In this document: positions 634-64,000 of the stretch, piece after piece | Layout: the number at the start of each line of letters is the position of its first letter | Numbering within the stretch: position 1 is the stretch's first letter | Source: an uncultured bacterium | GTDB lineage: Bacteria; Armatimonadota; Abditibacteriia; Abditibacteriales; Abditibacteriaceae | Direction of reading: 5' to 3' | Length of the DNA stretch: 64,000 nt | Assembly: GCA_963843795.1 (NCBI GenBank) | Contig: CAWJLW010000006.1 | Coordinates: forward strand, 930,001-994,000 | Notes under the pieces: model-generated | Told to the model about the DNA's origin: nothing | What the model saw: the letters and a program-made list of their open reading frames with translations, nothing else | Database searches by the model: none | Made by a program: the position numbers and the translations under genes

Positions 634-668
634 AGTTCCTCCACTTCTGCCTGCAAGTACTTGCCAGT

Positions 669-863
669 CTATTTTTCGCCGCGCAATTCGGGATGGCGCG
701 ACAAAATATATTCGTAGCGGTCTTGCGTTGGCCCGCCGCGCTCGTCGAAACACGGATTGCCGCCCGCGTAGTGCGTGCCTTTGGCATCGCCAAACGGATT
801 CAAGTCGCGCGTTTTGATCCAATTATCAATGCGCTTTTTGGTTTCTTCAGAAATCATACTCAC
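669..863 (-). CDS. Small hypothetical protein (64 aa)
   Basis: Compact, protein-like sequence (LNPFGDAKGTHYAGGNPCFDE...DRYEYIL), GAGG overlapping the start region, co-oriented with its neighbours. Confidence 0.7.
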   Translation of the reverse strand: MSMISEETKKRIDNWIKTRDLNPFGDAKGTHYAGGNPCFDERGGPTQDRYEYILSRHPELRGEK

Positions 864-1148
864 CTCGACCGATATTTTTCAGAAGTTACTTCACTGATAT
901 TATTGTAACGCTTTTCGGCCCCTCCTCATGAAAATAGTGCTGCAAGTACTTGCACGTCATCTTATGTGGCCAAATCTGTGTAATATATTAAACTGTCGGA
1001 GGTGAAACAATGCGACAAACTTTTGAAGAAGTGAGCGATGTGTTATTTTTCTACAAAGAAAAAGTGCGCCGTTTCTGGACACGCAGTGTGCTGCGACGCG
1101 GTGCGCTGAACAAAGCGAGCTATTGAAAATTGTTATTAATGACCAATC

Positions 1149-1194
1149 AAAACAAAAAAGGCTCCGCAAGTACTTGCGGAGCCTTTTTTGTTTT
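1149..1194. terminator. 46-bp perfect palindrome centred on GCAAGTACTTGC; probable intrinsic terminator
   Basis: aaaacaaaaaaggctccGCAAGTACTTGCggagccttttttgtttt, located at the fucosidase stop codon. Confidence 0.8.
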
Positions 1195-2996
1195 ATTGCA
1201 CCGGTTGAATTTTCAGGGCGCGCAGATTGATGGCGTTCCAGTTCGCGCCAGGCTTCAATTGCAGAGTCATTTTTCCGGGCGCGGCGATTTCAATCGTGCC
1301 GAGTGGCATTGATTGAAATTTTTCGTAATCGCCCGTTGCTGCGAGGGCTGAGCGAACGGTTTTGCCGCCGATAATCATATCGAGGTTTGTTGCTGCGGGA
1401 GCGGCGATTTCGGAAGTCACCAGATATTTGCCCGCGCGCACGGCTTGAAAAGTCCACTCGACGAAATCGTTTTTGTCCAACCAAAAACCGAAATTATCTT
1501 TGCCTTCAGCTTTGCGTTCGATGTTGACTGCGCCATGTAAGGTGGCGTCCATCGGTGCGAGCGCCAAACTGCCATCGGCGTTTTGCATGAGGGGCATTTC
1601 TTCGACGACCGGTGCGCCCGCGATTTCCAACAAGATGGTTGAACTCAGGGCATCGGGCGCGACTTTCGGTACGCTAATCGCCACACCATTTGCTCCGTGC
1701 AGTGCGTTCAAGCGTTTTTTGCTGCTAAGCATACGCGCGCCCAAGATCTGGTTTTTCAAGCCCGGCACTACCAGCTCGCCGTTAGCGGGCCAATTCCAAA
1801 CGTGCAGAAATAACTTGGTGTTTTTGCCATCGCGCTTTTGCGTGGCGCGCCCCCAACTGAGCTTTTTGAACGGGCTGGCCTGCGTGTCGTAAATCGCGGT
1901 GCTATTGGTTTTCATCCACGCGCCGATTTGCTGCAAACGTTCGACGCTGGGATTGGGAATTAAGCCTTGCGCCGTCGGGCCGACGTTCAACAAGTAGTTG
2001 CCGCCTTTGCTGGCGCAATCTATCAGGTTGTGAACCAAAGTTTCAGTCGATTTCCAATTGTTATCGTTTTTGTTGTAGCCCCAATGATTGTTCATCGTCA
2101 TGCACGATTCCCAATCGACGCCCGGCCCGAAACCTGTCGCGGGAATTTCCTGTTCGGGCGTGCCGTAATCGCCCACGCCATTGCCTTTATCCATGCCCTG
2201 CATGCCCGAGCGACCTTTGCCAACGCGGTTATTGACGATGATATTTGGCTGCAAAGTGCGCACATAATTGTATAAATCCACGCCGCGCTCGTGCGTCCAG
2301 CTTTCTTCCCATTCGCCATCAAACCACAAAATCCCAATCGGCCCGTAATTGGTCAATAATTCCTTGAGTTGGGCTTTCAGGTATTTCACATACTCGTCCA
2401 TGTCCGGCGTCGGCTCTTTGGCGGATGCGACATCGTTCCACGCTCGGCGCGGCGTGTAATCCTGATGATGCCAATCCATGATCGAATGATAGAAGCACAA
2501 TTTCAATCCGGCCTCTTTACACGCTGAGGCCAATTCTTTCAATGGGTCGCGCTTGGAATGGTGTGCGCTTCAAGCCCCAATCGCCGGTTTGCGAGCGAAA
2601 CATATCGAAGCCATCGTGATGTTTGCTGGTAATGACGATATATTTCATGCCCGCATCTTTGGCTAACTTCACCCACGCTTTGGCGTCGAACTGCGTTGGA
2701 TTGAAACCAACGGCGTATTTTTCATATTGCGAAACCGGCATTTTGGTTTCCTGCAAAAACCACTCGCCGTAATTCGTGTTGCCGTTGTATTCGCCAGCCG
2801 GAACCGCATAAACGCCCCAGTGAACGAACAAGCCGAAACGCGCTTCACGAAACCAGTTCATGCGCGCGTCATGCTGCGCTTGGGTTTCGGCCAGCGGTTT
2901 AAGTTCTTTGACAGCAGTCTTTTGAGCTTGCGCGTGCGCGCTGATACCGGTAAGCAGAGCAGTCGAGAGAAAAGCGGCGGTGATGAAACGATTCAT
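1193..2996 (-). CDS. GH29 alpha-L-fucosidase, secreted, with C-terminal carbohydrate-binding-like domain; frameshift near 2555
   Basis: The 5' ORF has a signal peptide, WFREARFGLFVHWG and ITSKHHDGF. The 3' ORF has FYHSIMDWHH, ILWFDGEW and GGNYLLNVGP. Removing one base at 2555-2556 gives continuous TPFKRDPLKELA. Confidence 0.9.
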
Positions 2997-3142
2997 GAGA
3001 AGTCCTTCGTCGAGGGAAATGGGAGCGCGAATAAGTTGCAAGTACTTGCAGCGCATTTTAACGCACAAAGGGTTCGATAACGATATTGCGGGAAGGTTTC
3101 TTCGCGTTAATAATTCTTTCATGAAATTTCCGGCCCTTAAAT

Positions 3143-3544
3143 TCATTTGCGCTTTTTTCGCATGAACTCTTCGCGTTCGCTGCGGGTAATCCACCAGAAC
3201 ATCAAACGCCAGATTTTCCAGCGTCGCAAAATATGTTTGTTCAAGAGAAAAAAAAGCGCGCCGCTGCCAGTGAGAACGAACATCGTTGCTATGATTTGGA
3301 GTTCTACAGGTAAATCGCTTGGCAACCTTTCATCTAAAAATTTCCTGCCAAAATTTAGCGTTGGAAAAACGACACACAGATAAGAAACTGAGGTTACAGC
3401 TCTGCCCACGCAACCACGCGCGATAATTTCGCCTTTCTCGGGTTGCGCAGATTTGTTCGGTTGTTCATGGACTTGAATATAGTAAATTCCAATCACAAAC
3501 AAAGTCAGCAAAAAACATATCAAAATCCAGAACATTTGACTCAT
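3143..3544 (-). CDS. Small hypothetical membrane protein (about 3 TM), AT-rich
   Basis: Hydrophobic segments; ATG at 3544 preceded by TACAAT 7 nt upstream. Confidence 0.55.
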   Translation of the reverse strand: MSQMFWILICFLLTLFVIGIYYIQVHEQPNKSAQPEKGEIIARGCVGRAVTSVSYLCVVFPTLNFGRKFLDERLPSDLPVELQIIATMFVLTGSGALFFLLNKHILRRWKIWRLMFWWITRSEREEFMRKKRK

Positions 3545-3636
3545 AACTTCTATTGTAAGCGAGCTTTCAACTAAACGCGAAAAGAGTTGGCGGCACTGCG
3601 CTTGCAAAAGAAAGTGACAAAATACTGGAGGCAGAA

Positions 3637-4056
3637 ATGGCACAAGACGACAATCCACAAATCGAGCAATTAGCTCAGCAATTTATCGACGCATTGCACG
3701 CCTTGGAAACCGGTGGCGAAGAACACGTGCAGGACATCGCCGAAATGTTTGCCGAAAACGCGACTTTGTGCAACTCCGCGCTGGATTTGCAGGGCAAAGA
3801 AGCCAATGGCAAAAACGCAGTCGTGCAATTCTGGACGGAATACAAAACTTCTTTGGGGCAGGTAAAATCGGAGTTTCATCACATCACGACTAACGAGCGT
3901 TCGGCAGGTTTGTTTTGGACGACTAAAGGCCAAAATCCTAACGGCGAAGCCGTCGATTATCACGGCGCGACTTTGTTGGAATGGAACGATGCGGGCCTGA
4001 TTCGATTCTTTCGCGGTTATTATGATACGCGCCAATTGGAACTCAAAGCATCTTAA
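3637..4056 (+). CDS. SnoaL-like / NTF2-family protein
   Basis: GGAGG RBS; NTF2-like pattern (IAEMFAENA...G+.AV..FW...GLIRFFRGYYD). Confidence 0.8.
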   Translation: MAQDDNPQIEQLAQQFIDALHALETGGEEHVQDIAEMFAENATLCNSALDLQGKEANGKNAVVQFWTEYKTSLGQVKSEFHHITTNERSAGLFWTTKGQNPNGEAVDYHGATLLEWNDAGLIRFFRGYYDTRQLELKAS

Positions 4057-4071
4057 GTTTCATCGCAACCG

Positions 4072-4107
4072 AAAAAGCGCGCTGCAAGTACTTGCAGCGC
4101 GCTTTTT
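4072..4107. terminator. 36-bp perfect palindrome centred on the motif; bidirectional terminator
   Basis: aaaaagcgcgctGCAAGTACTTGCagcgcgcttttt between convergent genes. Confidence 0.85.
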
Positions 4108-4112
4108 GTAGT

Positions 4113-4901
4113 TTATTTGGCTTGTTTGCGAAACGGCAGCATCCATAAATCGCCAATGGTTAAATCGTGTTCGTGCGGCAGTTCGGGCACGCCTATTTTG
4201 ATTTCCCCTTGTGAAATATCATCGCGGCGGCTGCGGTGAATTTTGTCCCAGAAAGAAAAAATCGTGCCCCAGTTGGAATCCATTTCGTCGCGTTTGACCG
4301 AATGATGAATGCCGTGCAAACGCGGTGTGATAAAACAGCGGCTCAAAGTCGCTTCGATCCACAACGGCAAACGCCAATTGGAATGATGGAACTGCGCGGC
4401 AGTTTCAAACGCGCCTTCGAAAATCAAAACGCCAATCGCAGGCACGCCGCCGATGATAACGACAAGCACACGAAATACAACCGACAAAACCAGTTCGCCA
4501 AAGTGAAAGCGCGCCGCTGTCGAAGAATCCATATCTTCGTCGGCGTGATGCACCAGATGAAATCGCCACAAAAACGGCACGCGGTGCGTCGCGATGTGCC
4601 ACCAATAATACGCGTAATCGGCCCAAACTACGCCCGCAAGTACCTGCAGCGCAAATGGCAGCGGCACATGATGCAAAATGCCGACGTTGTGTTCCTGCGC
4701 CCACAATGCCGCGCCATAAGGAATCGGAATCAAAGCCAAACGCATCACGACAAACGCGGGCAGAGAAAACACTAAATTGCGCATCACGCGCGGCAATTGT
4801 GCATATTTTTGGTGGCGTAACGGCGTCGAAAAACCGCGCCACAGAAAATATGCGAATGCGAGCATTACAAAAGGCGCAATACGAAAATCATAGAAACTCA
4901 T
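4113..4901 (-). CDS. Sterol desaturase / fatty acid hydroxylase family protein
   Basis: His boxes YWWHIATH, FHLVHH, QFHHSN and LHGIHH; NWGTIFSFWDKI; TM segments. Confidence 0.9.
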   Translation of the reverse strand: MSFYDFRIAPFVMLAFAYFLWRGFSTPLRHQKYAQLPRVMRNLVFSLPAFVVMRLALIPIPYGAALWAQEHNVGILHHVPLPFALQVLAGVVWADYAYYWWHIATHRVPFLWRFHLVHHADEDMDSSTAARFHFGELVLSVVFRVLVVIIGGVPAIGVLIFEGAFETAAQFHHSNWRLPLWIEATLSRCFITPRLHGIHHSVKRDEMDSNWGTIFSFWDKIHRSRRDDISQGEIKIGVPELPHEHDLTIGDLWMLPFRKQAK

Positions 4902-4949
4902 GATGAGAGTAGAGTTGAAACCAAAAACGAAAAGATGGGCTTGTTATAA

Positions 4950-6377
<1,428 letters not shown>

Positions 6378-6393
6378 AAATCAGTTGAAAACG

Positions 6394-6425: not shown

Positions 6426-7301
6426 TTATAAGGACATGTCCAACCGGTGTTGGGGCATATTTAGCGTTTCGCCTTCCAACTGATGACGAAACCAGGTTTC
6501 CTGCCGCTTGGCATAACGTCGCGATTCTTGTTTCCACAACGCAATCGCCTCTACGCGTTGCGATTCATCGTTCAACGCGGGCAACATTTGACGATAGCCG
6601 ACGCTGTTCAATATCGGTGCATCCAGTGGCACGCCGCTTTCGACTAAAGTGCGCAATTCTTGCCATGCTCCTTCGCCTATCATTTGCTCGATGCGAGTTT
6701 CTATGCGTTGATAAAGAATTTCGCGCGGCCATTGCAATTTGTAAACGCGCGCTTTTATCGATTCAATCTCACGGCAAGTACTTGCGGGCGGCGAAAGCGC
6801 GATTTGAAGCGCGCGAATGATACGATAGCGATCATTCAAGTCGATGGAAGCCGCGCGCTGCGGTGCAAGGACTTGCAAGCGTTGATACAAAGATTCCGCG
6901 CCATTTTCGTCCCATTGTTTTTCCAATTCAAAGCGCAAATTTTCATCTGGTTCGCGATTATCGAACAAATGCGGCTGCAACAAAGCGCGCAGATAAAAAC
7001 CCGTTCCGCCACAAATTATCGGCGTTTTATCGCGCGCCTGAATATCGGTGATGCAGTCGCGTGCGCGCGCGGCCCATTGCAAGGCGGAAAACGTTTCGTC
7101 GGGCTCGCAAATATCAATTAAATGATGGCGTGCTTGAAGTTGTTCGGCGCGCGTGGGTTTGGCGGTCACGATGTCGCAGCGCCGATAAATCTGGCGTGAG
7201 TCGGCGGAAATGATTTCTCCGTTCAATCGTTGCGCGAGTTCAATCGAAAGCGCAGTTTTGCCGCTGGCGGTCGGGCCGGCGATGATGATTGCTTCAGTCA
7301 T
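6426..7301 (-). CDS. miaA: tRNA dimethylallyltransferase
   Basis: GPTASGKT, IISADSRQIY, GGTGFY, RIIRAL and RRYAKRQETWFR. Confidence 0.96.
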   Translation of the reverse strand: MTEAIIIAGPTASGKTALSIELAQRLNGEIISADSRQIYRRCDIVTAKPTRAEQLQARHHLIDICEPDETFSALQWAARARDCITDIQARDKTPIICGGTGFYLRALLQPHLFDNREPDENLRFELEKQWDENGAESLYQRLQVLAPQRAASIDLNDRYRIIRALQIALSPPASTCREIESIKARVYKLQWPREILYQRIETRIEQMIGEGAWQELRTLVESGVPLDAPILNSVGYRQMLPALNDESQRVEAIALWKQESRRYAKRQETWFRHQLEGETLNMPQHRLDMSL

Positions 7302-15058: not shown

Positions 15059-15104
15059 AAGCACAAAAGCGCGCTGCAAGTACTTGCAGCGCGCTTTTGT
15101 GCTT
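15059..15104. terminator. 46-bp perfect palindrome centred on the motif; bidirectional terminator
   Basis: aagcacaaaagcgcgctGCAAGTACTTGCagcgcgcttttgtgctt between convergent tadC and the GH51 gene. Confidence 0.85.
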
Positions 15105-17716: not shown

Positions 17717-17764
17717 TGTGACGAAAAGTGCGCTGCAAGTACTTGCAGCGCACTTTTCGTCACA
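17717..17764. terminator. 48-bp perfect palindrome centred on the motif
   Basis: tgtgacgaaaagtgcgctGCAAGTACTTGCagcgcacttttcgtcaca, just downstream of the minus-strand gene ending at 17786. Confidence 0.75.
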
Positions 17765-20403: not shown

Positions 20404-20437
20404 AAAAGCGCGCTGCAAGTACTTGCAGCGCGCTTTT
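20404..20437. terminator. 34-bp perfect palindrome centred on the motif; bidirectional terminator
   Basis: aaaagcgcgctGCAAGTACTTGCagcgcgctttt between convergent genes. Confidence 0.85.
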
Positions 20438-27988: not shown

Positions 27989-28981
27989 TTACTGTGCTGC
28001 GACAACTGCGTGTTTATCCAGCAAGCCATCAATCAATTCATCGGTTTCGATTCCATCGGCCTGCCCTTCGAAATTCAAAATCATGCGATGGCGCAACGCG
28101 GGACGCGCGATAAATTCGATGTCTTCCTGCGAAACATGAAAGCGCGTTTCCAACAAGGCCCGCACTTTGGCCGCCAAAATCAAAGCCTGTGCGCCACGCG
28201 GACTGGCGCCATAACGCACGTATTTTTTCACTTCATCCGTCGCCCATTCCGAATCGGGATGCGTGCCTAATGTCAGTTTCACGGCGTGTTCTTGGATATG
28301 CGGCGCAATCGGCACATCGCGCACCAAGCGCCGCAGCATCATAATATCTTCGCGCGCAAGTACTTGCGAGGGCGTAGCGCTGTGAGTTTGCGTGGTGCGA
28401 TTGAGGATTTCCATCAATTCGTCCATTGTTGGAAAAAAAACACGCAATTTGAACAAAAATCTGTCCAATTGCGCTTCGGGGAGTGGATAAGTGCCTTCCA
28501 TTTCCAGCGGGTTTTGCGTCGCTAAAACGATGTAAGGTTCTTCCAATTGAAAAGTTTTGCCCGCGACCGTGACGCTGCGTTCCTGCATCGCTTCCAGAAG
28601 CGCCGATTGAGTTTTGGGCGTGGCGCGATTGATTTCGTCGGCCAAGAGAATGTTGGTGAAAACCGGGCCTTTTTGAAATTGAAATTCGCGCGTGCCATCC
28701 GGCTTTTCCGCGATGATATTGGTGCCAGTCACGTCTGCGGGCATCAAATCGGGCGTGAACTGAATGCGCGAAAATTGCAAACCCAAAGTTTGGGCTAACG
28801 TACGCACCAAAAGCGTTTTGCCAAGCCCCGGCACGCCTTCGAGCAAAACATGGCCTCCGGCGCACAAACACATCAAAACGCCTTCAACGATCATATCCTG
28901 TCCGACGATGACACGGCCCATTTCAGCTTTGAGAGCATCGGCGCGACGGCGAAATTCTTCTACTGCGGCAATTGGTTCCAT
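27989..28981 (-). CDS. moxR: MoxR-family AAA+ ATPase
   Basis: HVLLEGVPGLGKT, RIQFTPDLMPAD, ADEINRATPKTQSALLEAM and GTYPLPEAQLDRF. Confidence 0.95.
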   Translation of the reverse strand: MEPIAAVEEFRRRADALKAEMGRVIVGQDMIVEGVLMCLCAGGHVLLEGVPGLGKTLLVRTLAQTLGLQFSRIQFTPDLMPADVTGTNIIAEKPDGTREFQFQKGPVFTNILLADEINRATPKTQSALLEAMQERSVTVAGKTFQLEEPYIVLATQNPLEMEGTYPLPEAQLDRFLFKLRVFFPTMDELMEILNRTTQTHSATPSQVLAREDIMMLRRLVRDVPIAPHIQEHAVKLTLGTHPDSEWATDEVKKYVRYGASPRGAQALILAAKVRALLETRFHVSQEDIEFIARPALRHRMILNFEGQADGIETDELIDGLLDKHAVVAAQ

Positions 28982-37616: not shown

Positions 37617-38801
37617 ATGTCTCTCCTTGAAAAGCTCCACAGCGAATTTGGCGACGCCGTAACGCTTGGCGCGCCCGAACCTGACGCCACGATTGACCAA
37701 CGCGCTCCGCAAGTACTTGCCGCGCCGCGCGACGAAGCATCCGCAGCGCAACTTTTGCAATGGTGCGGCGCGCACCAGATCGCGTTCGTGCCCGCTGGCG
37801 GACGCACGCGTCTGCACATCGGCGCGCCGCCCGAACGCTACAATTTATTGATTTCCAGCGCCCATTTGCAACAAATTCACGATCATGACGAAGGCAACGC
37901 GACCGTTGAAGCGGGCAGCGGCATCGCGCTTGAAGCGCTAGATAAAACCACGCGTCAGCGCGGGCAATTTGTGCCCCTGAGCGCAAACGACGCGCGTTCG
38001 ACTTTGGGTGGCGCTATCGCTTTGAACCAGATGGGAAGTTGGGCCTTGAAATACGGCACGGCGCGCGATTTAGTGACCGGCGTGCGCATGGTTCTCAGTG
38101 ATGGACGCACCGTGAAGGGCGGCGGAAAAGTCGTGAAAAATGTGTCCGGTTACGATTTGCCCAAACTGTTTATTGGTTCGCGTGGCACATTGGGTTTCAT
38201 CACGCGCGTGACTTTGCGTTTGCGTCCGGTTTCGCCCTGCACGCGGGATTACGAAATTCAAGATAACGCGGAAAATATTGCAGAATTAAATCAGCGCGTG
38301 ACCAATGGTGCCTTCGATACTGTCGGCGTGCGCGCGCGCTTCGATGGACAAAACTGGCTTTGGCAGGCGCGTTTCGAAGGCAGCGAAAGAGCGGTGCAAG
38401 GGCAAATCGCGCAATTGCCCGCGGCAAGTACTTGCGATGCACCCGCAAGTACTTGCGATGCGTTTTCGGCATTCCATAGATGCGCGATTCAACTGCGCGC
38501 TATGTTGCCGCGCGCCGTGGCTTTCGATTGGGCGCGCAACTGTGCACAAAATGGCGCGTCAGCGGTCGAAATCAACGCCACCGGTCTGGTGCGTCTGGGC
38601 TTCGATAAAATCGAATCGCAAGCGGTCGAAACCTTGCGCCAGAGCGCGCGTGAGGCGCACGGTTGGCTCCTTGTTGAACGTGCGCCAGTCGAATGGAAAT
38701 CGGCGAGTTTCGTGTGGGGGCACAGCGGTGGCGAGACGAGTTTAACGCGCGATTTGAAAACCAAATGGGATTCAGCTGATGTGTGTGCGGTTGGACGGTG
38801 A
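37617..38801 (+). CDS. FAD-binding oxidoreductase (GlcE-like)
   Basis: GGKVVKNVSGYDLPKLFIGSRGTLG and TLGG, typical of the FAD-binding PCMH domain. Confidence 0.88.
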   Translation: MSLLEKLHSEFGDAVTLGAPEPDATIDQRAPQVLAAPRDEASAAQLLQWCGAHQIAFVPAGGRTRLHIGAPPERYNLLISSAHLQQIHDHDEGNATVEAGSGIALEALDKTTRQRGQFVPLSANDARSTLGGAIALNQMGSWALKYGTARDLVTGVRMVLSDGRTVKGGGKVVKNVSGYDLPKLFIGSRGTLGFITRVTLRLRPVSPCTRDYEIQDNAENIAELNQRVTNGAFDTVGVRARFDGQNWLWQARFEGSERAVQGQIAQLPAASTCDAPASTCDAFSAFHRCAIQLRAMLPRAVAFDWARNCAQNGASAVEINATGLVRLGFDKIESQAVETLRQSAREAHGWLLVERAPVEWKSASFVWGHSGGETSLTRDLKTKWDSADVCAVGR

Positions 38802-39106: not shown

Positions 39107-39118
39107 TTCAAACTTTCA

Positions 39119-43393: not shown

Positions 43394-46300
43394 ATGAGCC
43401 TTGAATTCTCGCCACCTTCGCAATTTCGCCCGCTTTTGGTTTGGATGTGGACGGGTCATCTCGATCACACATGGTTGTTACGTCAAGTGCGTAAGAGTGC
43501 CGAAGCAGGATTTGGCGGGCTGGTGATCCGCGCGGGTTACGCGATGACGCCAGCGTTTCTGAGCGACGAATGGTTTGTTCTGGTGCGCGCGGTGGCTCAA
43601 GAATGCCACGCTGCGGGCTTGCAATTGTGGCTGGGCGACGAAGGCGCGGGCGCGACGGGAACTTTCAACAGTCAAGACGGCAGCGGGCGTTCGGGTCAGG
43701 GAGCGGGGCGTATCACGCGCGAATCGCCGCAGCTACGGCGCCAAATTCTGAAGTTTTCCAGCGAAACTCTGACGCGCGACGATATTGCGCGCGGCGCGCT
43801 TGATGGGTGGAAGCTCGCACCGCCCGAAGGCGAACTTTTGTATGCGGTCGCGGTACCCAATGCGGGGCGCAAGCTGGATTTCACGCGCGCGGTTCCCCTT
43901 TACCGTTCTGATGCCGAACAGCAAACGCGTTTCATCAAGCGTCTGGGTGGCGACGTGCGCATTCTGACTTTTGCTTTTCAAAGCGCGGATTACGTGGATC
44001 TGCTTAATCCGCAAACTGGAGCGGAGTATCTGCACTCCGTTCACGAACGTTTGCGCGAAGGTCTGGGCGAAGAATGGGATTTGCTGCACGGATTGTGGAC
44101 GCAGTCGCCCGCGTTGCGTCCTCATTTGGGCGCAACTGATGAACTTCCTTGGTCGCCGATTTTGCCTGAAGTTTATGAGCAGCAGCCGGGCTACGAACTG
44201 CTGGAATGGCTGCCCGCGCTTATCGCTGATATCGGCGATGATGCCTCGCGCTTGCGTCAAGATTTCTGGCGCACCGTCAGTGCGATGGAAACCGTGGCGT
44301 TCTGGTCGCCATTGCAGCAGTGGGCGCGCGCGCATAATAAAGAATATGGGGGCTACGCGCCCGGCTGCGAATCCCTGAATGCGGTGGTTGCTTCGCACGG
44401 CGACATCGAGCCGATTTATCGTTTGTGGCCGCGTCCGACTATTGAGGCGGCAGGTTTAAATTGCGGTGATCATCCGCTCGATTTGGGTCGTGCACTGCAC
44501 GCGAAATTGGCGGCTTCGGTTATTGCATTGCATCCGCAGCAAGCGAGCGAAACCCAAAATCAAGTGACGCGCTTGACGGCGGAAGCGTGGCGCGATGGCG
44601 GCTGGGGCGCAACATTGAGCGACCGCATGAGTTCGCTCCATCATTTGTTGCGTCAAGGCGTCAACAGTTTCAGCGCGCATGGCTGGCAAGTGAACGGGCG
44701 CGAAGATATGCCATTTCTGCCCGCGCCCGACGGCCAAAGCCAGCCTTATGTCGCAGGCTGGAAATCGATGAACGCTTATATTGCGCGCTGTTCGTGGCTG
44801 CTTTCGCACGGTCAATCGGGCGCGCGCGTGGCGTTGTTGTGGCCGATTCGTTCGGCTCAGGCGCATCACCATCCGCGCGGCCACCGTTTCACGCGTTGGG
44901 TCGAGGAAGATTTAAACGCGACCGCATTGATGCTGGACGATTTGCATTTTGAATGGCTGTTCGCGACTGAAGACGATATTATGCAGGGCAGCATTGAAAA
45001 CGGCGCGCTGTTTTGTGGCGCGTTACGCCAGCGCTTCGAGTTGATTGTGCTGCCTTCGGTGACAGCATTGGCGCGCGAAACCTGGATGCGTTTGGAAGAA
45101 TTTGTCGAGCAGGGCGGAAAAGTCGCGTGTCTAGGGCTTTTGCCACGCTATTCGCAAAGCGGTCGCGACTTAGCGTTTGAAGAAGAAATTTCACGTTCGA
45201 CAATGGTCACGGTCGATGAACTTTACGCTGCTTACGCGCTGCTTGAAGACAGCGGCGATAGCGCGAGCGCCGCCTCGTTCGCCATGACGCGCGACCACGA
45301 ATCGGGCGGGCGCTTTTCTTCGTATCAACCGCGTCTCAACCCTGATGTGCGCGATGCGCTCTTGCGTGTGCGTCAACTGCTCAAAGAAAGTGTGCTGCCC
45401 GAATTGGAAACTCAAGCCAGCGATATTCTCTATGCGCGCCGTTTGCTCGCCGCCGACGAAATTCTGGGAAACGTGTCCGCCGTCCCTCCGCAAGTACTTG
45501 CGCCCCAGGCCGTGAGCGCGAAAACCGCTGAAGACAAAGACCTCAACACCGAAACTGAAGTCGAGCCAGATCAAGTCACTTTCGCCTGGGATAAGCCTTT
45601 CGACTGGGGCGACAATGCAGCGCAAGATGAGCTTGAAACAACCGACGACGATGATTTTTCCGATGATGAAGACGCGCCACTGCCGATTTTGAACGACCAC
45701 GCTCTCAGCGCGCAGCGCGAACACAAGGGCGGCGATCTGTTCTGGGTTTTTAACGCCAGCGAGCGCGCTCAGAATTGCAATATATTGTTGCGTCCGCGCC
45801 GCGAAGGCGTGCCTTATGAAATCGACGCGTGGACAGGCGAAATGCGCGTTTTGCCCGTCCGCATGAATTTCGATGAATTTGAAGGCGGTGGCCTGAGCCT
45901 GGCTTTGGAAATGGCACCACAACAAGCGCGTTTACTATGGGTTCGCCCCAATGAAGCGGACGAAGCGCAGCAGCCTCACATCGAAGCCGCGACGTGGATG
46001 GTAGAAGGTTGGGACGGGCGGTTGGCGCGCGGTTACGTCACGCACAGTGGTGCGCCGCGCACCGCCATTCGGCGTGGCGAAAGTTTGCAGCGTCACAGCG
46101 GCGAATCGGTCAAAGTGCCTGCGCCTTTGCTGATGCCCGATACGTGGCAGGCCAATCGCGTCGGCCCCAATGTTCTGGTTCCGCCGTTGTGGCAATGGCA
46201 GCGAGGTCGTCATTTGCCCGGCCAACAACGCTTGCTTTTCGGGCGCGAACAATGGCAGTCTTTGCCCGCTCACGACGCCGATTTAGCGCGCGATGCATTC

Positions 46301-47056: not shown

Positions 47057-47090
47057 AAAAGCGCCCTGCAAGTACTTGCAGGGCGCTTTT
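47057..47090. terminator. 34-bp perfect palindrome centred on the motif; bidirectional terminator
   Basis: aaaagcgccctGCAAGTACTTGCagggcgctttt between convergent genes. Confidence 0.85.
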
Positions 47091-50442: not shown

Positions 50443-51900
50443 ATGAAGAAATATAAAAACCAAGTTGAAGAACAAGAACAATTGCGCCTTGATCGCAACA
50501 ATTCCGAGCGCCAAAGTGACGCGCGCGAAGTTTCCAACGCGCTTCTCAAAACTTACGGGCGCGGCGTGGTTTTGTCGGAAATCGAGGCCGGTTCCATCGC
50601 CGAAGAATTGGGTTTGCAGCCCGGCGACCGTTTGGTCCAGATCAACGAAGAACCCGCGCGCGATGCAATTCAGTGGAAAATGGCCGATTCAACCGAGCAA
50701 CTTTCTATCACCATCATTTCAAAAAATGAAGAAGTGCAACTTTTTGAAATTGAAAAAGACGCTTTCGAGCCGGTCGGAATCGGTATTGATTCCGAACTGT
50801 TCGACGGCGTAAAACGTTGCACCAATAAATGTCCTTTCTGCTTCGTCGATCAATTGCCGCCGCGCGTCAAAAATAGCTTTGGTGCCAAAGACAAATTTAA
50901 AAACCTGCGCCGCACGTTGTATGTGCGCGATGATGATTATCGTCTGAGTTTTCTTCATGGTCATTACATCACGCTCACCAATCTCAAAGACGCCGATTAC
51001 GAGCGCATTATTCGTGAAAAACTGACGCCTCTGTGCGTTTCGGTTCACGCGACCGACCCTGAAACGCGCATCAAAATGGTTGGCAATAAAAGCGCCGGCA
51101 ACATTATGGAGCGTTTAGAATTTCTGATAGACAACGGAATTCAGGTCAATACGCAAATTGTGCTCTGTCCCGAAGTGAATGACGGCGCAATTTTAGAGCG
51201 TTCAATCGAAGATTTGATGAGCTTATGGCCGGGTGTTGAGTCGATGGCAATTGTGCCCGCTGGCCTCACCAAATGGCTGCCGCCCGAGCGTGGTTTGCGC
51301 ACCGTGCGACCCGCTGAAGCCGCGCGCATTCTGGAACAAATCAAACCGTTTCAGCGCCGCGCCAAGGAAAAATTTGGAGCACGCTTCGTTTACGCTTCCG
51401 ATGAAATGTATCTTTTGGCCAATCAGCCGGTTCCGGGTGCGAGCTATTACGATGGCTTTCCACAGTATGCTAACGGCGTCGGCACGATTCGCAATTTTCT
51501 CGATGAAGTTACTAAATTGAAGCGCAAAAAGGCGCAGCAAGTACTTGCACAGAAGAAAATCACGCTCGTGACCGGAACTTTGGCCTCCGATGCATTGCAA
51601 GAATTAGCGAACGTGGTTAATGAGCGCGGTCTCGCGCAAGCGCAAGTGATTACCATTCAAAACACTTTCTGGGGTGGCAATGTCGGTTGCGCGGGTTTGA
51701 TTATGGGCGAAGAACTGCTGGCCCAACTCAAAGGCGTCGATTGCGGCGAAATGATTTTCCTACCGCCGGATGCCGTCGATAACCAGAATCGAATGCTCGA
51801 CGACATCACGCTGGATGAACTGAGCGCGCAACTGGGAACCCAAGTGCGCTGCGACGCCAGCGGCCCGATGGAACTCGCGCAGATTTTAGCGGCGAGCTGA
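50443..51900 (+). CDS. PDZ + DUF512 radical-SAM-like Fe-S protein
   Basis: CTNKCPFCFVDQLP, DDDYRLSFLHG and QIVLCP; upstream of der. Confidence 0.92.
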   Translation: MKKYKNQVEEQEQLRLDRNNSERQSDAREVSNALLKTYGRGVVLSEIEAGSIAEELGLQPGDRLVQINEEPARDAIQWKMADSTEQLSITIISKNEEVQLFEIEKDAFEPVGIGIDSELFDGVKRCTNKCPFCFVDQLPPRVKNSFGAKDKFKNLRRTLYVRDDDYRLSFLHGHYITLTNLKDADYERIIREKLTPLCVSVHATDPETRIKMVGNKSAGNIMERLEFLIDNGIQVNTQIVLCPEVNDGAILERSIEDLMSLWPGVESMAIVPAGLTKWLPPERGLRTVRPAEAARILEQIKPFQRRAKEKFGARFVYASDEMYLLANQPVPGASYYDGFPQYANGVGTIRNFLDEVTKLKRKKAQQVLAQKKITLVTGTLASDALQELANVVNERGLAQAQVITIQNTFWGGNVGCAGLIMGEELLAQLKGVDCGEMIFLPPDAVDNQNRMLDDITLDELSAQLGTQVRCDASGPMELAQILAAS

Positions 51901-51906
51901 AAATTA

Positions 51907-51968
51907 AATTTTAAAACAACAACAGCGCGCTGCAAGTACTTGCAGCGCGCTGTTGTTGTTTTAAAATT
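51907..51968. repeat. 62-bp perfect palindrome centred on the motif (possible terminator or cruciform)
   Basis: aattttaaaacaacaacagcgcgctGCAAGTACTTGCagcgcgctgttgttgttttaaaatt. Confidence 0.9.
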
Positions 51969-55653: not shown

Positions 55654-56061
55654 ATGGCTACACAGGAAAAAGCAGGGCCGATGACACGCGCCGATATTGC
55701 CGGAGCGGTGGCTGCCAAAATGTCCGTCACGCTCAAGCAGGCCGATGAAATGGTGCGCGAATACGAAGCCGCGATTGTGCGCGCGCTGGTTTCAGGCCAG
55801 GAAGTGCGCTTGAATGGATTCGGCGTTTTCAAGTTGCAGCATCGCGAAGCGCGCATGGCGCGCAACCCGCGCACCGGCGAGCAACAGCCCGTCGATGCCA
55901 AAACTGTCCCCAAATTTCAGCCGTCCAAAACCATGAAGGATGCGCTGATCCAAGACGATGGCGCCAAAGCCAAGCCTAAAGCTGCCGCAGCCAAAGCCAA
56001 GCCTGCTGCCAAAGCCAAAGCGCCCGCTAAAACCGCTGCTAAAGCCAAAAAAACCAAATAA
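55654..56061 (+). CDS. hup: HU-family DNA-binding protein with Lys/Ala/Pro-rich tail
   Basis: GFGVF and ARNPRTGE; C-terminal AKAKPKAAAAKAKPAAKAK; AGGAGG upstream. Confidence 0.93.
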   Translation: MATQEKAGPMTRADIAGAVAAKMSVTLKQADEMVREYEAAIVRALVSGQEVRLNGFGVFKLQHREARMARNPRTGEQQPVDAKTVPKFQPSKTMKDALIQDDGAKAKPKAAAAKAKPAAKAKAPAKTAAKAKKTK

Positions 56062-56983: not shown

Positions 56984-57094
56984 AGAAAATTAAAACGAAA
57001 CAAGAAAACGGGCCTGCAAGTACTTGCAGGCCCGAATAGTATCCAAAATTACCGACTTCTTTATACCGCAAGTTAGTTGCAGCAGACAGTTTGA

Positions 57095-57880
57095 TCAAGC
57101 TGCAGGTATGACATTCGCGCTCAAAACATCTTCGCTCGCCAGCGCTTCGCGCTGTGCCTGCGCCAGCGAGGGCCCGACGACAATGCCGCGATCTTTTTGA
57201 ATCGAGTAGGTATATTCGACTAGATCCGTTGGCGTACCGCGCATTTTGCGTACGAACATCGTGCGCGCGTGCTGTCCATCGGCCAGCTTGTTCAAGCGCA
57301 GCGCAATCACGCCCGAAACCATAAATTCCTCGACGCCCATTTCGCTGCCCGGCAAAGTCCACGGTGAAGAATGCGAGTTCATAATCGTGGTCACACCCAA
57401 GTTGTCATCGATGCCAAAAATCAATTTGCGAATATATTCCTGCACATCATACATGCGGTCGGAATGCAAAACCAGAGGCACAATCGGGTCAATGACGACG
57501 CGCTTGGCACCAATGCGGCGCACTTGTTTCGACAAATCTTGAAGGACTTCGTTGGCATCGACGGCATTAGTTTTCGAGTTGCGCACCCAGTTGAAGTAAG
57601 GCGAAACGTCCAGCAACATCAAGCGCCCTTCATCGGCAGGCGTGCGCAAATCCCAGCCAAGCGTTTCGATGTCCTCGATCATGTGGCTGGGCTTTTCGTC
57701 AATGGAAATGAAGATGCCATTTTCGCCGCGCTTCAAGCCTTCCTGAATGAACTGCGCACCGAAGGTGGTCTTACCGGTTCCAGGCGGGCCGGAAACCAGA
57801 TAACTTTTGCCTTGTGGCAAACCGCCTTGCAGCATTTCGTCCAATTTTTCGATGCCGGTCGGCACCCGTTCTCGGGCCAT
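57095..57880 (-). CDS. Single-domain KaiC/RAD55-like RecA-superfamily ATPase
   Basis: TGIEKLDEMLQGG, GPPGTGKT, RVVID and RKMRGT. Confidence 0.9.
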   Translation of the reverse strand: MARERVPTGIEKLDEMLQGGLPQGKSYLVSGPPGTGKTTFGAQFIQEGLKRGENGIFISIDEKPSHMIEDIETLGWDLRTPADEGRLMLLDVSPYFNWVRNSKTNAVDANEVLQDLSKQVRRIGAKRVVIDPIVPLVLHSDRMYDVQEYIRKLIFGIDDNLGVTTIMNSHSSPWTLPGSEMGVEEFMVSGVIALRLNKLADGQHARTMFVRKMRGTPTDLVEYTYSIQKDRGIVVGPSLAQAQREALASEDVLSANVIPAA

Positions 57881-60306: not shown

Positions 60307-60429
60307 GAAAACAAAATCGTAGGGCTAAAACTGGATGTGCAAGTACTTGCTATGTGCCTCAGCACTGGCAAACAAATTCGCGGCAGGAAGGCTGGTGCCC
60401 TTCTGCCGCGAATCGACGCTGTGCGAATG

Positions 60430-61296
60430 TTATTCGGGGCGCGGAATTGGCGATTCTCCGCCACCGCTGCTCCCGCTGCTGCGTTCGGGACGTGGAATCG
60501 GCGATTCACTCGTGCTGCGTTCGGGACGTGGCGCACTGCGCACTGGCGGTCGCGACCCCGAACTGGAAGAAGATGAACGGCTGGCACGGTCGCCCGAACT
60601 GGAACTCGAGCTACCTGAACCCGAACCACTCGACGAACTATCGCCAGAAGACGATGCGCTGCGCGTCGAACGCGATGGCGTATCGCTTGAACTGGAAGCG
60701 TAACCGCTCGAATCGTCGCTGGACGAGCTGTCGGTGCGGCTGGGCGTGTCGGACGAAGTTGTGGCCGTGCTGGGTGGCGATGCGCTTGTCGTACGCGTGC
60801 GGCGTCGGCGTCGGCGACGTGTAGGCTCGGCGCGGGCATTATCGCGCGAACGCATACCCGAAGAATCATCGAATTCACGCTCGCCCAGCGGTCCGGAGGC
60901 GGAACTGTTATCGGAATCGTTGCTATCGGAGTTGCTGCCCGAGCTATTGCTATCGTTGCGACTGCGCGAGGCCGAAAGCGAAGAAGTCGGAACGCTGGGC
61001 TTAGGATTAATTTCGCGCGCGCGTTCTTTGAGCACTTCGGTCGGCGGCGGCGGCGGCCCGGCACCCGCTGATTCGGCGGGCAGAACCTCGACATCGACGC
61101 GCGGCGGCCCTTCTTTGATGCTGTTCTGGCGCGTCACACTGGTGTTGATAGAGGCGGTGGTGGCTTTGTTGTCCTTGTCACTCAAACTGGAGCCGAACAA
61201 TTTGCTGCTGAGAATATAACGCCCGAAAGCGTAGGAACCGTAACCTAAAGTGCCCAGCAAAGCCAACACAATAACGAGGCGTTTGAGAAACTTCAT
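60430..61296 (-). CDS. Membrane-anchored Ser/Arg-rich intrinsically disordered protein
   Basis: N-terminal signal anchor, a poly-Pro run, a poly-Arg run, Ser-rich tracts and a duplicated ESPIPRPE. Confidence 0.7.
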   Translation of the reverse strand: MKFLKRLVIVLALLGTLGYGSYAFGRYILSSKLFGSSLSDKDNKATTASINTSVTRQNSIKEGPPRVDVEVLPAESAGAGPPPPPTEVLKERAREINPKPSVPTSSLSASRSRNDSNSSGSNSDSNDSDNSSASGPLGEREFDDSSGMRSRDNARAEPTRRRRRRRTRTTSASPPSTATTSSDTPSRTDSSSSDDSSGYASSSSDTPSRSTRSASSSGDSSSSGSGSGSSSSSSGDRASRSSSSSSGSRPPVRSAPRPERSTSESPIPRPERSSGSSGGGESPIPRPE

Positions 61297-61473
61297 ACAT
61301 ATAAGCGTAGCACGACTGCGCTTAATCGCCCACAACATCACCTGCAAATACTTGCCGCTACTTGCCACCAAAATCCGTCGGCAATTTCGCACTCATCGAA
61401 AGCGACCCATTAGAAAATTAGGTTCTCTATCGGGTCGTTTTCACAAATTACGCGGCAAGTACTTGCAAACGGT

Positions 61474-64000
61474 TTAGCGCGCAATCAAATTGAACGTGCC
61501 GCTTGCTAACACCTTTCCACTCGCATCCCGTAAACCGGCAATTTGCAGTTCGATTTTATCTCCTGCACGCAAATTCAAACCGCTCAACGTCACGACATTG
61601 TTGGCGTAAGTGGCCGCCCCGATTTGCATCGCGGCACCATTGATGGCCAGCTTGTAATTCTTCGTGTCACGCGCTGAAATCACATCAAGCGCGCCGCTGA
61701 AATTCAGGGCAATCGCGTTCTGTGCCGTAGACGCATTGGCCGAGGACAGGCGCACATTCGATGGTTGCGGCGCGGTCTCCGCGACAATAATGCGATTGGT
61801 CACGCGATTGATGTTATCGCTGTTGTCGGTTGCTGTGATGCGCAAATCGTAGCGGCCCGCCAATAAATCGGTCGTGGCATTCGCGCCCAGTTTGGGTAAC
61901 GGTCCCTTGTAACTCCAATCGATGCCTTGCATCATGAGCGGCAGTTCGGTCGGAGCAGCAACCCAGCTTTTACCGTTCCAAAACTTGCCGTCGAAACGTT
62001 GCCACAACAGCGTCACGATTTTCAAACCGGCATTGCGGTCGCGCACACGACCGGCGATTTTGCTGAATTGACTCACAGTTTCTCGGTCGCGCGGTGTGTC
62101 GAAAGCTAATTCGGGCGCGCGCTGGTCGATAACGTTCAAACGCACGCGCGCGGTTGCCGTGGTTTTGCCATCGCTGATGGCGTAGGTGAACTCATCGACA
62201 CCGATTTTTCCGGTGCTGGGCAGGTAAAACAAGGTTCCGTCGTTGCGCAATTGAAAGCGGCCCTTGCTGGGATTATTAAGCGCACGCACTGTCGGTTTGC
62301 GACCTGCTGGAAAACTATCGTTGCGCAAAACGCCGGGCGCTTGAATTTGAAAAACGCCGCTGCTGAGCAGCACGATGCCGCTCGCTTGTGCTTGGCCTGG
62401 TGCACCCAGAATCAGGCTGAAATCGTCATCGGTCGCGCTCACCGCCGCATCGCCACCGACGGCGATTTCAACGCTGGCCTGCGCGCTTGCTACGCCATCG
62501 CTGACGCGGAACGTAAATGCATCCTTGCCAAGAAAACCTGCTTTTGCGCTATAAATCAAGTTCGGAATGTTGCCGGAAAGCGTGCCGTTTTGCGGATTGG
62601 CAATGATGTCGAAACTCAGCGTGTCGTTATCAACATCAGTCGCGCCGAGCGTAATTCGCAGTGGTGTCGCGTTATCGGCTGTGAGTTGCTGCCTAATGGC
62701 GACCGGCGCATCGTTGACAGCAAGTACTTGCAGCTCGATTGTCGCGAGGTTGGAATCCAGGGCGCCATCGTTGGCGGTGAAAGTGAAGCGATCCGCGCCG
62801 TTGAAATTCACATCGGGCGTATAAATCAGGTTTGGCGCTGTTCCCGAAAGCGTGCCATGTTCCGGTGCAGCGACGATGCGCAAATTCAAATTTGCGACCG
62901 GAGTCTCAATATCGCTCGCGCTCAACACGATATTCAAGGGCGTATCTTCGTCCGTCGAAAGCTGTTGCGCGTGGGCGATGGGAGCATCGTTGATGGCAAG
63001 TACTTGCAGCGCGATTTGAGCGATGTTGCTATCGGATGCGCCGTCGCTGGCAACGAAGCTGAAAGCGTCCGCTCCATTGAAGTTTGCGCTTGGCGTATAA
63101 ATTAAACTCGGTGCTGTGCCCGACAATGTGCCGTGTGCGGGCGGCGTCACGAGGCGGAAAGTTAAATTGGCAATTGGCGTATCAACATCAGTCGCGCCCA
63201 GAAGGATGTTAAACGGTGTATCTTCGTTCGTCGAAAGGTTTTGAGGTGACGCGACTGGCGCGTCATCAATCGCGTTTACGGTCAAAGTTGCGGTCGCATT
63301 CGCGCTATTTTCGCCCGAGTTGACCGCAAAGACGAGCGTGCGATTGGTGGTGTTGGGCGTGTCGCTGAGGTTGTTGTAACGAACGCTGGCAAGTACTTGC
63401 TGGTAATGCGCGATGCTATCGTTTCCGTTTAAATTCAGAGTGCGCGTCTGGGCGTTGTAATTCGCACTGATTTGCGTGCCGCTGACATTAGCGTTTAAAA
63501 TTTCGCTCGCGTTATCGGGGTTTTGGTTCAGTTGGACGGTCGCGCTACTCAATTCCGCGTTATTGGTGAGGACGATATTGGGCGCGATAACGATTGGCGT
63601 TTGTTCGCTGAAAGCTGTCGTCACATCCTTGCCTTCGGGACTGCCATTCAGGTCGATAGCAAGTGTGCTCACTGGAATTTGTACTTCAAAAGAGCCCGCA
63701 TCGTTATGGCTGCTGGCCGAGCGCGGAAATCCGCGTTGATCGGTCGTGATGGCGGCGAGCGGTGTCGCCAAATTCAAAGCCGGACTATCGGCCATTAAAG
63801 CGTGCGTCAATGTCGGTCCGTCGTTATTGGCCAGCACTTCCAGCCGCGCATCCAGCGGCGCGGCCACAGTTCCGACGCGGTCGTTGGCACCAAAGCCCGT
63901 TGCGCTGCCGACTTTGCCGATGACATTGAAGCCACCCGAAACGTAAGCACCGCGCAAATCGGGATTGCTGTTGGCGCTATTTCCGGCGACTATAGAGCGC
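61474..64000 (-). CDS. Large surface protein, C-terminal part (choice-of-anchor-Q-like region plus tandem Ig/cadherin-like repeats)
   Basis: The frame stays open to the window end (RSIVAGN...). It has NNDGPTLTHAL...DQRG...DAGSFE and 92-aa DAP.A...EDTP repeats. Confidence 0.88.
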   Translation of the reverse strand, partial: RSIVAGNSANSNPDLRGAYVSGGFNVIGKVGSATGFGANDRVGTVAAPLDARLEVLANNDGPTLTHALMADSPALNLATPLAAITTDQRGFPRSASSHNDAGSFEVQIPVSTLAIDLNGSPEGKDVTTAFSEQTPIVIAPNIVLTNNAELSSATVQLNQNPDNASEILNANVSGTQISANYNAQTRTLNLNGNDSIAHYQQVLASVRYNNLSDTPNTTNRTLVFAVNSGENSANATATLTVNAIDDAPVASPQNLSTNEDTPFNILLGATDVDTPIANLTFRLVTPPAHGTLSGTAPSLIYTPSANFNGADAFSFVASDGASDSNIAQIALQVLAINDAPIAHAQQLSTDEDTPLNIVLSASDIETPVANLNLRIVAAPEHGTLSGTAPNLIYTPDVNFNGADRFTFTANDGALDSNLATIELQVLAVNDAPVAIRQQLTADNATPLRITLGATDVDNDTLSFDIIANPQNGTLSGNIPNLIYSAKAGFLGKDAFTFRVSDGVASAQASVEIAVGGDAAVSATDDDFSLILGAPGQAQASGIVLLSSGVFQIQAPGVLRNDSFPAGRKPTVRALNNPSKGRFQLRNDGTLFYLPSTGKIGVDEFTYAISDGKTTATARVRLNVIDQRAPELAFDTPRDRETVSQFSKIAGRVRDRNAGLKIVTLLWQRFDGKFWNGKSWVAAPTELPLMMQGIDWSYKGPLPKLGANATTDLLAGRYDLRITATDNSDNINRVTNRIIVAETAPQPSNVRLSSANASTAQNAIALNFSGALDVISARDTKNYKLAINGAAMQIGAATYANNVVTLSGLNLRAGDKIELQIAGLRDASGKVLASGTFNLIAR

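Follow-up and report, generated by a model that had tools for sequence, protein, structure and literature searches.

What could make one 12-base palindrome recur dozens of times in 64 kb of bacterial DNA, inside genes as well as between them? The palindrome is GCAAGTACTTGC, and the window is the whole 64,000-nucleotide stretch of contig CAWJLW010000006.1 (positions 930,001 to 994,000) from an uncultured member of the Abditibacteriaceae, phylum Armatimonadota. The palindrome very probably belongs to a real, substitution-built system with dialects, comparable to the highly iterated palindromes (HIP) of cyanobacteria and the DNA uptake sequences (DUS) of Neisseriaceae. Homologues of one gene carry the labels Abditibacterium utsteinense, Abditibacteriaceae, and Armatimonadota, in agreement with this family. 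The system is general to a clade and apparently undescribed so far. The literature searched yielded no prior description of the palindrome or its dialects, a mention in a k-mer survey table being possible.

A recount of the window gives 49 exact copies spanning 653-63400, the number reported in the original prediction, and none of 100 dinucleotide shuffles reaches 49 (mean 0.00). The genome (G000, 4.30 Mb, 11 contigs) contains 2,567 exact copies, which makes the palindrome its top 12-mer, and every contig is hit. Markov models of order 2-5 with the motif masked expect 0.2-1.9 copies, so the enrichment is not confined to the window. Per 10 kb, the main contig (C6) has 6.3 copies and the other contigs 0.7-5.6. 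Beside the exact copies there are 506 sites with one mismatch and 371 with two, and because these near-matches are few, the consensus is sharp. The earlier view is supported that this system acts at the DNA level across the genome and is no ordinary regulon. A short-read contig, from a run that may be the source sample, is identical to window 62466-62836, including the copy at 62720. This match, together with the same 12-mer in the independent assemblies of two other species, excludes an assembly artefact. Gene positions throughout come from a simple gene calling of our own, not from a curated annotation. The copies in the window start at the following positions:

Copies 1-17: 653, 942, 1166, 3038, 4084, 6774, 7643, 9089, 9612, 11079, 12964, 15076, 17572, 17735, 20415, 21268, 23119
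Copies 18-33: 26041, 27534, 27973, 28356, 30408, 31070, 32127, 32190, 36353, 37709, 38424, 38445, 38832, 41712, 42760, 43321
Copies 34-49: 45490, 47068, 48279, 49444, 51537, 51932, 53748, 54448, 56138, 57016, 57965, 60339, 61455, 62720, 62996, 63389

Origin, spacing and placement of the sites

The sites are made from existing sequence by substitution, not by insertion. Of 52 alignments between a genic copy and a relative's orthologue, some genes being counted against several relatives, 32 are gapless near the site, and gaps are above background (20/52 or 38%, versus 10%). Amino-acid identity at genic motif sites is 22% against a background of 58%. The motif codons are used by 499 of 560 QVLA and 547 of 920 QVL peptides, where about 0.4% is expected, and by 113 of 131 ASTC peptides. 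The peptide counts are 920 QVL versus 272 reversed LVQ and 149 STC versus 22 reversed CTS. Left-right symmetry in genic copies shows no excess over permutation (n=505), which speaks against hairpin-templated creation in genes. Direct repeats of 3 or 5 bp are not above shuffled pairing, in line with the earlier remark that target-site duplications are lacking, and excesses of even-length repeats are read as a product of self-complementary hairpin arms.

A metagenome scan with an 18-mer returned at least 132 loci, and most of the long ones come from the two other species, K and M. Species K has a GC content of ~0.67, a median amino-acid identity to G000 of 64.5%, and 93 further copies besides the queried form; the values for species M are ~0.63, 61.6%, and 61. 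The outer bases of their copies are looser than in G000. Overlapping metagenome pairs are 100% identical. In these comparisons 17 of 113 genic copies are gapped. Among 69 gapless orthologous genic sites, 12 are identical and 38 lie within two mismatches (background 23%), a conservation that fits selection and a restoring bias alike. Of 31 non-conserved orthologous sites, 22 have at least six mismatches, whereas a flank-matched background predicts about 13, and the distribution is bimodal. This permits no conclusion on en-bloc writing of the motif, because a motif gained step by step in variable regions would give nearly the same picture.

Motif counts are sub-Poisson, with a variance/mean ratio of 0.43-0.63 over intervals of 2-50 kb. 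Five control words give 0.98-1.18, and gene starts are as regular as the motif (0.47-0.54). The regularity nevertheless exceeds gene structure, because 38 intervals longer than 5 kb are observed versus 85 +/- 6 with gap occupancy permuted, and because genes are filled in. Genes below 1.2 kb contain 0.376, 0.220, and 0.065 internal sites per kb when zero, one, or two flanking gaps are occupied (~6-fold). The corresponding values are 0.333, 0.211, and 0.127 for genes of 1.2-2.4 kb, and 0.346, 0.243, and 0.250 for genes above 2.4 kb. As internal density falls with occupied flanking gaps, the site-making force saturates over ~1-1.5 kb. No periodicity at 5-120 kb is seen (maximum power 5.2 versus 5.5 for the interval-shuffled null) in a test simpler than the one published for HIP1.

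The G000 copies comprise 1,820 intergenic (71%), 662 deep in genes (26%), and 85 at gene edges, with genic reading frames of 439 QVLA, 128 KYL, and 95 ASTC. The window itself has 33 intergenic and 16 genic copies, one of the latter (9612) in a doubtful open reading frame (ORF), and a copy is present in 31 of the 45 gaps that are 20 bp or longer; both results agree with the earlier counts. By orientation, 19 of 27 tandem, 8 of 9 convergent, and 4 of 9 divergent gaps in the window are occupied. All orientations thus contain copies, as stated before, but orientation is not irrelevant: 155 of 218 convergent gaps of 60-200 bp are occupied versus 75 of 147 divergent ones (p=1e-4), and copies favour convergent gaps and sites just 3' of stop codons. 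Density on C6 is 47-83 per 100 kb, except in the island-rich first 100 kb and the foreign last 23 kb. On this contig it is unrelated to the origin and terminus as placed by GC skew, with no dip near the GC-skew maximum and both replichores uniform. The two longest motif-free stretches (~26 kb each) contain insertion sequences and restriction remnants. Genic density declines from 0.37 per kb in the decile of least expression bias to 0.04 per kb in that of most. The end of C6 (~3,600,000-3,623,414) has 67% GC, type IV secretion genes, and no motif, and is foreign or mis-joined. Contig C3 carries a phage-tail-like gene cluster and only 3 motif copies. Genic copies in the window (no strand assigned) include the following:

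6774..6785, copy in a tRNA isopentenyltransferase (IPPT) gene, from the gene calls
28356..28367, copy in a MoxR AAA ATPase gene, QVLA frame, from the gene calls
38424..38456, two copies in an FAD-binding oxidoreductase gene, spaced by 21 bp and alike in their right flanks
45490..45501, copy within a GH106-like gene, in a variable loop at which the G001 orthologue has a gap
51537..51548, copy in a DUF512 gene whose G001 and G012 orthologues bear their own dialects a few bases away
62720..63400, three copies (62720, 62996, 63389) in one long immunoglobulin (Ig)-repeat gene, an example of fill-in over a long coding stretch

Among the intergenic copies, 551 of 1,820 lie in perfect palindromes with arms of at least 12 bp. 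Predicted terminators, taken as hairpin and T-run matches after stop codons, contain the motif in 632 of 793 cases (~80%), in a scan that counts convergent terminators twice and is biased towards the motif because the motif supplies six paired bases. In RNA folding, three hairpin copies have z = -5.7 to -11.1, and one genic copy does not fold. Many copies may be used secondarily as terminator apices. Head-to-tail motif doublets also occur at hairpin centres of G000, with 10-13 bp spacing and ~50 pairs when one-mismatch sites are counted, which suggests slippage at hairpin apices. The hairpin copies in the window (no strand assigned) include the following:

1149..1194, terminator-type copy in a convergent gap, forming the apex of a perfect palindrome of 46 bp (arm 23) with A/T tails
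4072..4107, terminator-type copy in a perfect 36-bp palindrome; RNA fold of -26.9 kcal/mol (z=-5.7), its loop being GUAC
15059..15104, terminator-type copy flanked by convergent genes, in a perfect palindrome of 46 bp (-39.9 kcal/mol, z=-9.1)
17717..17764, terminator-type copy in a perfect 48-bp palindrome
20404..20437, terminator-type copy in a 34-bp palindrome, convergent gap
47057..47090, terminator-type copy in a 34-bp palindrome, convergent gap
51907..51968, the longest hairpin copy of the window, with a palindrome that is perfect over 62 bp (-46.6 kcal/mol, z=-11.1)
57009..57034, short hairpin copy of 26 bp, with the kaiC-like gene on one side and the zip gene on the other

Other features of the window are an alpha-L-fucosidase split in two ORFs (consecutive parts, one Pfam model) and a seemingly split RarA/MgsA (1193-3032 and 39188-40589), for which frameshifts or long-read errors are candidate readings. 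A 6S/SsrS RNA gene at 38901-39108 is the sole Rfam match in the window.

Dialects and avoidance of the core in the family

The exact 12-mer of G000 occurs 0-3 times in each of 40 relatives. Sampled stretches of several relatives contain other spellings, all of them dyad-symmetric on a shared (A)GTAC(T) core (W is A or T):

CAAAGTACTTTG, in G001
TCGAGTACTCGA, in G009, G015, and G019
(C)GAGTACTC(G), a shorter form, in G012
AAGTACGGTCGA-WW-TCGACCGTACTT, a 26-bp form, in G006, where a right half differing by no more than 1 mismatch accompanies 57 of 80 left halves

Six of 27 family genomes have 2,813-4,733 AGTACT (0.75-1.2 per kb), and the other 21 have 1-285. In 13 of those 21 the count is at most 33 (1-33), beside 418-1,172 for a reversed control word. 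The ratio of RAGTACK to control reaches at least 3.5 in five of 251 phylum genomes, all of this family, the highest outside it being ~2.4; G006, with 2.0, is inconspicuous by that measure. Pooled motif-negative loci have observed-to-expected (O/E) ratios of 0.06 for GTAC, 0.07 for CTAG, and 1.66 for GTAG/CTAC, so the avoidance is specific to palindromes. Most of the family has purged CTAG together with GTAC; G010, G021, and G023 have not purged CTAG.

The seven motif-positive genomes come together in an EngA tree from a quick search that left out G017 (support 94) and in a short concatenate (support 0.978). When G017 is added it falls among the motif-positive genomes, the exclusivity is gone, and the position of G003 is unstable. 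One origin of the motif with later losses is likely, and G017 is a probable loss. The motif-negative genomes G017 (L078, L268, L041), G003 (L042), and G024 (L287) contain isolated copies of several dialects and one full hairpin, some of these loci having been picked for holding a match. One 7.8-kb contig bears 9 of the 18 AGTACT of its motif-negative genome. Transfer from motif-positive donors and mis-binning are candidate readings of the isolated copies.

Contig C4 of G000, which looks like a 100-kb phage-plasmid, has 24 copies of the G000 dialect, and a related 58-kb viral contig (L436-L438, L441, L442, L445) has a dense G006 dialect. This phage-plasmid family thus wears the spelling of its host. 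An unrelated low-GC phage (38-43% GC; L471, L472, L514, L453, L478) has palindromes resembling GTGCAAGTACTTGCAC, most of which lie just upstream of genes; they probably represent an operator or promoter element converging on the same word. In an all-genome scan with a 14-mer, at least 80 matches are listed, and all of these are single except one duplicated segment. A first viral scan gave 6 single matches.

Phased flanks, candidate readers and the methyltransferase

The flanks had been described as variable, which does not hold. The consensus beyond the 12-mer is CTGCAAGTACTTGCAG, followed by a GC-rich stretch and then by A/T-rich bands, with A/T phased out to ~70 bp and G+C minima ~15, 25, 36, 47, and 57 bp from the dyad. 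The 10.5-bp amplitude of W-dinucleotides is 0.103 at exact sites, 0.082 at one-mismatch sites, 0.060 at other AGTACT, 0.002 at other GTAC, and at most 0.019 at four unrelated control hexamers. Genic copies keep the phasing (0.097, n=439), whereas similar peptides encoded without AGTACT have an amplitude of 0.001 (n=532), so flank phasing is no artefact of protein helices or terminators. The phase is alike in all dialect sets tested (4.3-6.5), with amplitudes of 0.015-0.075, weak in species K and M. Phased A/T on both sides is a signature of DNA curved one way around a dyad, as in bent protein-DNA complexes, and the flanks here may reflect such curvature. Pairs of sites 16-130 bp apart cluster near multiples of 10.5 bp (n=231 after 32 of 263 pairs with similar flanks were dropped; Rayleigh Z=23). 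This pair phasing could follow from flank phasing and is no independent evidence.

The search for a protein that reads the site covered a shortlist of 179 small basic proteins judged by eye, of which 7 were Pfam-scanned and 2 searched in relatives, and it is far from exhaustive. Rejected candidates are PabI glycosylase (0/27 genomes), histone-fold protein (0/5), Lrp/AsnC (0/5), TetR (2/5, none in G000), RHH_1 (13/27, none in G000), C5 methyltransferase (2/5, none in G000), and Vsr (4/27, none in G000). HU, ScpA, and the core ParB occur in 5/5 genomes each, motif-negative G017 included, and the HNH-repeat protein also in 5/5. HU has one gene in each of the 5 genomes, and only the usual core ParB was found, with no extra one. 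The single HU gene of G000 lies in the window at 55654-56061 and has a Lys/Ala-rich tail, with a KaiC-like ATPase nearby at 57095-57880. A tandem-AP2 protein was rejected as well, as it occurs in 18/27 genomes of both classes, including 11/20 motif-negative ones, in two paralogue groups. G000 has two paralogous basic tandem-AP2 proteins (C6:2124483-2125031 and 1248447-1248965) that are patchy across the family. Genes for ComEA, ComEC, and DprA are present in G000. A ComP profile matched 0/5 genomes, but it had no match in any control either.

The best lead from the search for the reader is a family-restricted orphan methyltransferase. It is a 256-residue beta-class enzyme encoded at C6:2517365-2518135 of G000, the sole N6/N4 methyltransferase detected in G000, and its closest solved structure is M.RsrI, the target of which is GAATTC. 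It is present in 21/27 family genomes, i.e., in 7/7 motif-positive and 14/20 motif-negative ones (one copy broken), and among 251 phylum genomes it was found in 18, all in this family and in no other. Three genomes without it, which form one clade, have near-normal GTAC (O/E 0.70-0.96), and G013 and G016 lack it yet have GTAC purged. A nuclease-like gene adjoins the methyltransferase in 6/12 motif-negative loci: a protein like a type II restriction endonuclease (REase) in G003, G017, and G020, and HARE-HTH-Mrr in G005, G014, and G041. No nuclease was seen beside it in the 7 motif-positive loci, where shared neighbours and N-termini were compared and some loci reach contig ends, and G000 has no homologue of the type II REase-like protein. 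The adjacent nuclease P0122 has a PD-(D/E)XK-like fold at best Z 7.2 and one strong viral match, with no relatives among the plasmids or viral contigs searched. In the genome region of a cyanophage relative of the type II REase-like protein, RGCY-type words have O/E 0.13-0.42 and GTAC 0.29. The type II REase-like protein belongs to no Pfam family, some copies have an N-terminal signal-like segment, and relatives occur in Verrucomicrobiota and cyanophages. It also lies beside comEA in a fourth genome (L252 and L286 of G008; L097, L095, and L105 are also listed).

Known systems and competing explanations

The claim that the palindrome is not HIP1, DUS, the uptake signal sequence (USS) of Pasteurellaceae, Chi, parS, matS, or the end of a repetitive extragenic palindrome (REP) or miniature inverted-repeat transposable element (MITE) is supported. 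REPs with a GTAG foot and their REP-associated tyrosine transposase (RAYT) are palindromic, abundant between genes, and often just downstream of stop codons. The motif shares these three features; in contrast, it has no foot-plus-stem architecture, lies deep in genes in 26% of cases, is made by substitution, and has no intact associated transposase that could be found. The sites of SlmA, Noc, ParB (parS), and MatP are dyad-symmetric, 12-16 bp long, and number tens of copies, whereas the motif has thousands of copies and no ori or ter bias. The central AGTACT is indeed common to the motif and the SlmA site, but a link to SlmA is not supported, as G000 has no TetR_N match and no terminus depletion. 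Uptake sequences are known to serve in terminators. In the accessible parts of PMC7811141 and PMC2817400, they occur ~1 per kb, are even, and are scarce in acquired DNA and constrained genes. The motif is like DUS and USS in its ~1 per kb, even spread, and depletion in acquired DNA and constrained genes, and also in the tripeptides that it imprints on the proteome, its bias of reading frame, its species dialects, and (for USS) A/T-rich flanks. It differs from them in its palindromic core, its flanks phased on both sides to ~70 bp, its phylum, the purge of the core in sister lineages, and the lack of a receptor identified here. HIP1 (GCGATCGC) raises transformation in a way that depends on methylation, according to the accessible part of PMC13756078. 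Like HIP1 and alternate HIPs, the motif is a hyper-abundant palindrome in and between genes, with sites conserved between genomes, lineage-specific variants, an orphan methyltransferase as candidate partner, and a function that is not settled. Unlike HIP1, it has an AGTACT core, is longer (12-16 bp, and 26 bp in G006), belongs to Abditibacteriaceae and not cyanobacteria, is mostly intergenic, tips terminators, has strongly phased flanks, and shows no detected 10-90 kb periodicity. No GTAC words occur among the HIP variants in the accessible part of PMC4390886.

The tentatively preferred explanation, held with less than even confidence, is a palindromic self-DNA tag spread by biased uptake and/or recombination. 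The tag would be a dyad-symmetric site of ~16 bp, with the AGTACT core and species-specific outer bases, and a protein would read it and bend the duplex around it. What the data establish is a signature resembling protein recognition, kept up at DNA level and saturating in density. Sites would arise by substitution, with one favoured per 1-1.6 kb and little gained by an extra site nearby. The driver is guessed to be preferential uptake and/or recombination of site-bearing DNA fragments, a molecular drive as in uptake sequences, and symmetric curvature might make it easier for DNA to fold back on itself at the site while it is taken up. The spelling would drift between species, and many copies would be co-opted as terminator apices. 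A role for methylation of the sites is likewise a guess. Uptake or recombination is ranked first because it is the only established process, as described in the accessible part of PMC7811141, to give the whole property set without a fitness gain per site, and because competence genes are present and HIP1 is tied to transformation (PMC13756078, same limit). Several points weigh against this ranking. No receptor was found, and the known USS and DUS cores, as far as PMC2817400 was accessible, are not palindromic, while all dialects here are. ComEA and ComEC also occur in motif-negative relatives, so the distribution of competence genes does not follow that of the motif; motif-negative G017 lacks DprA, but that genome is only 84% complete. 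A phage-plasmid wearing the dialect of its host fits any force acting inside the cell, and uptake drive alone does not account for the purge of the same core in sister lineages. An intracellular wrapping protein suits the two-sided phasing to ~70 bp and the in-phase neighbours no less well. A lattice of sites for such an abundant dimeric protein, which would bend or wrap ~100-140 bp and organise the chromosome with one site per 1-1.6 kb under selection, is the main rival, possible but held to be less likely than uptake. It gains from the 10.5-bp phasing of exact and genic copies, absent from controls and similar in phase across dialects, from close pairs in helical phase, and from sites uniform along both replichores; it explains the symmetric flanks as well as uptake does, and the same role is proposed for HIP1 in the accessible part of PMC5861425. 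Conversely, no candidate protein tracked the motif (HU, histone fold, Lrp, ParB, RHH_1, tandem-AP2), pair phasing may merely follow flank phasing, 5-120 kb periodicity is lacking, and each of 2,500 sites must repay its amino-acid changes.

A ratchet of methylation-directed repair, after Elhai's model for HIP1, is unlikely. An orphan methyltransferase would mark (A)GTAC(T), and strand-directed repair would fix site-creating mutations to ~1/kb. Saturation near 1 per kb and fill-in are as that model predicts in the accessible part of PMC4390886, the methyltransferase is family-restricted and in 7/7 motif-positive genomes, GTAC is anomalous across the family and near-normal in three genomes without the enzyme, and its nuclease-like neighbours appear in 6/12 motif-negative loci and in none seen of the 7 motif-positive. 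However, the enzyme is also in 14 motif-negative genomes, G013 and G016 purged GTAC without it, and the three normal-GTAC genomes form one clade. A methyl mark of 4-6 bp does not account for specificity over 12-26 bp or for phased flanks of 70 bp, one partner nuclease has a cyanophage relative that points to RGCY-type words as much as to GTAC, the closest solved relative is M.RsrI, and G000 has no C5 methyltransferase or Vsr. A miniature element of REP or MITE type, spread by a transposase, is highly improbable and largely refuted. The 71% intergenic share, the 551/1,820 intergenic copies in long perfect hairpins, the gaps near genic copies (20/52 versus 10%), and the 26-bp palindrome of G006 would suit it, whereas most genic copies align gapless, 505 genic copies show no symmetry excess, target-site duplications are absent, and insertion does not predict fill-in spacing. 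The sole RAYT-like gene found, by pattern search only, lies at C6:751600-752500 of G000; it is broken, and the GTAG-foot REP on its flanks is another repeat, a family of its own that is unrelated to the motif. Strong DNA gyrase sites, with the central GTAC as the 4-bp staggered cut and phased arms wrapping the GyrA C-terminal domains, are hardly to be expected either. The E. coli gyrase motif is symmetric, ~130 bp long, and has 10.75-bp periodic arms (PMC6379681, accessible part), G000 has a single gyrA-type gene (C6:1261880-1264426) and no parC paralogue by tblastn, and copies favour convergent gaps and positions just after stops. Yet the enzyme reads shape, not an exact 12-mer, and the same part of PMC6379681 puts A/T-rich positions at distances of ~18.5, 38.5, 49.5, and 61 bp, with G-rich ones at 10-15, counted from the dyad, so the G+C minima here are offset by ~3-4 bp (by hand, against E. 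coli only). Causes other than these five have very little probability. Of the mechanisms first proposed, methylation/repair, biased uptake, and a dimeric nucleoid protein all remain live, and none is proven.

A history of domestication is conceivable, if rather improbable. An ancestral restriction-modification system on (A)GTAC(T) would be the reason why most relatives purged the core; one branch would have lost the nuclease, and the methylated core would have become the centre of a species-specific self-tag. A DNA-bending reader of this tag would then fill the chromosome and resident phage-plasmids at ~1 site/kb. If true, this gives a direct path from an avoided to a hyper-abundant palindrome and a template for the origin of HIP1.

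Hyper-abundant words are known mainly from two families of uptake sequences and from cyanobacterial HIP1, the driver of which is debated, and the Abditibacteriaceae add an independent case from another phylum. The family provides a built-in comparative experiment: one core is spelled in at least five ways, G017 has probably lost the motif, and sister genomes have purged the core. The dialects are natural donor labels for gene transfer and binning markers in metagenomes. Swapped dialects could separate uptake drive from chromosome architecture, a question left open for HIP1.

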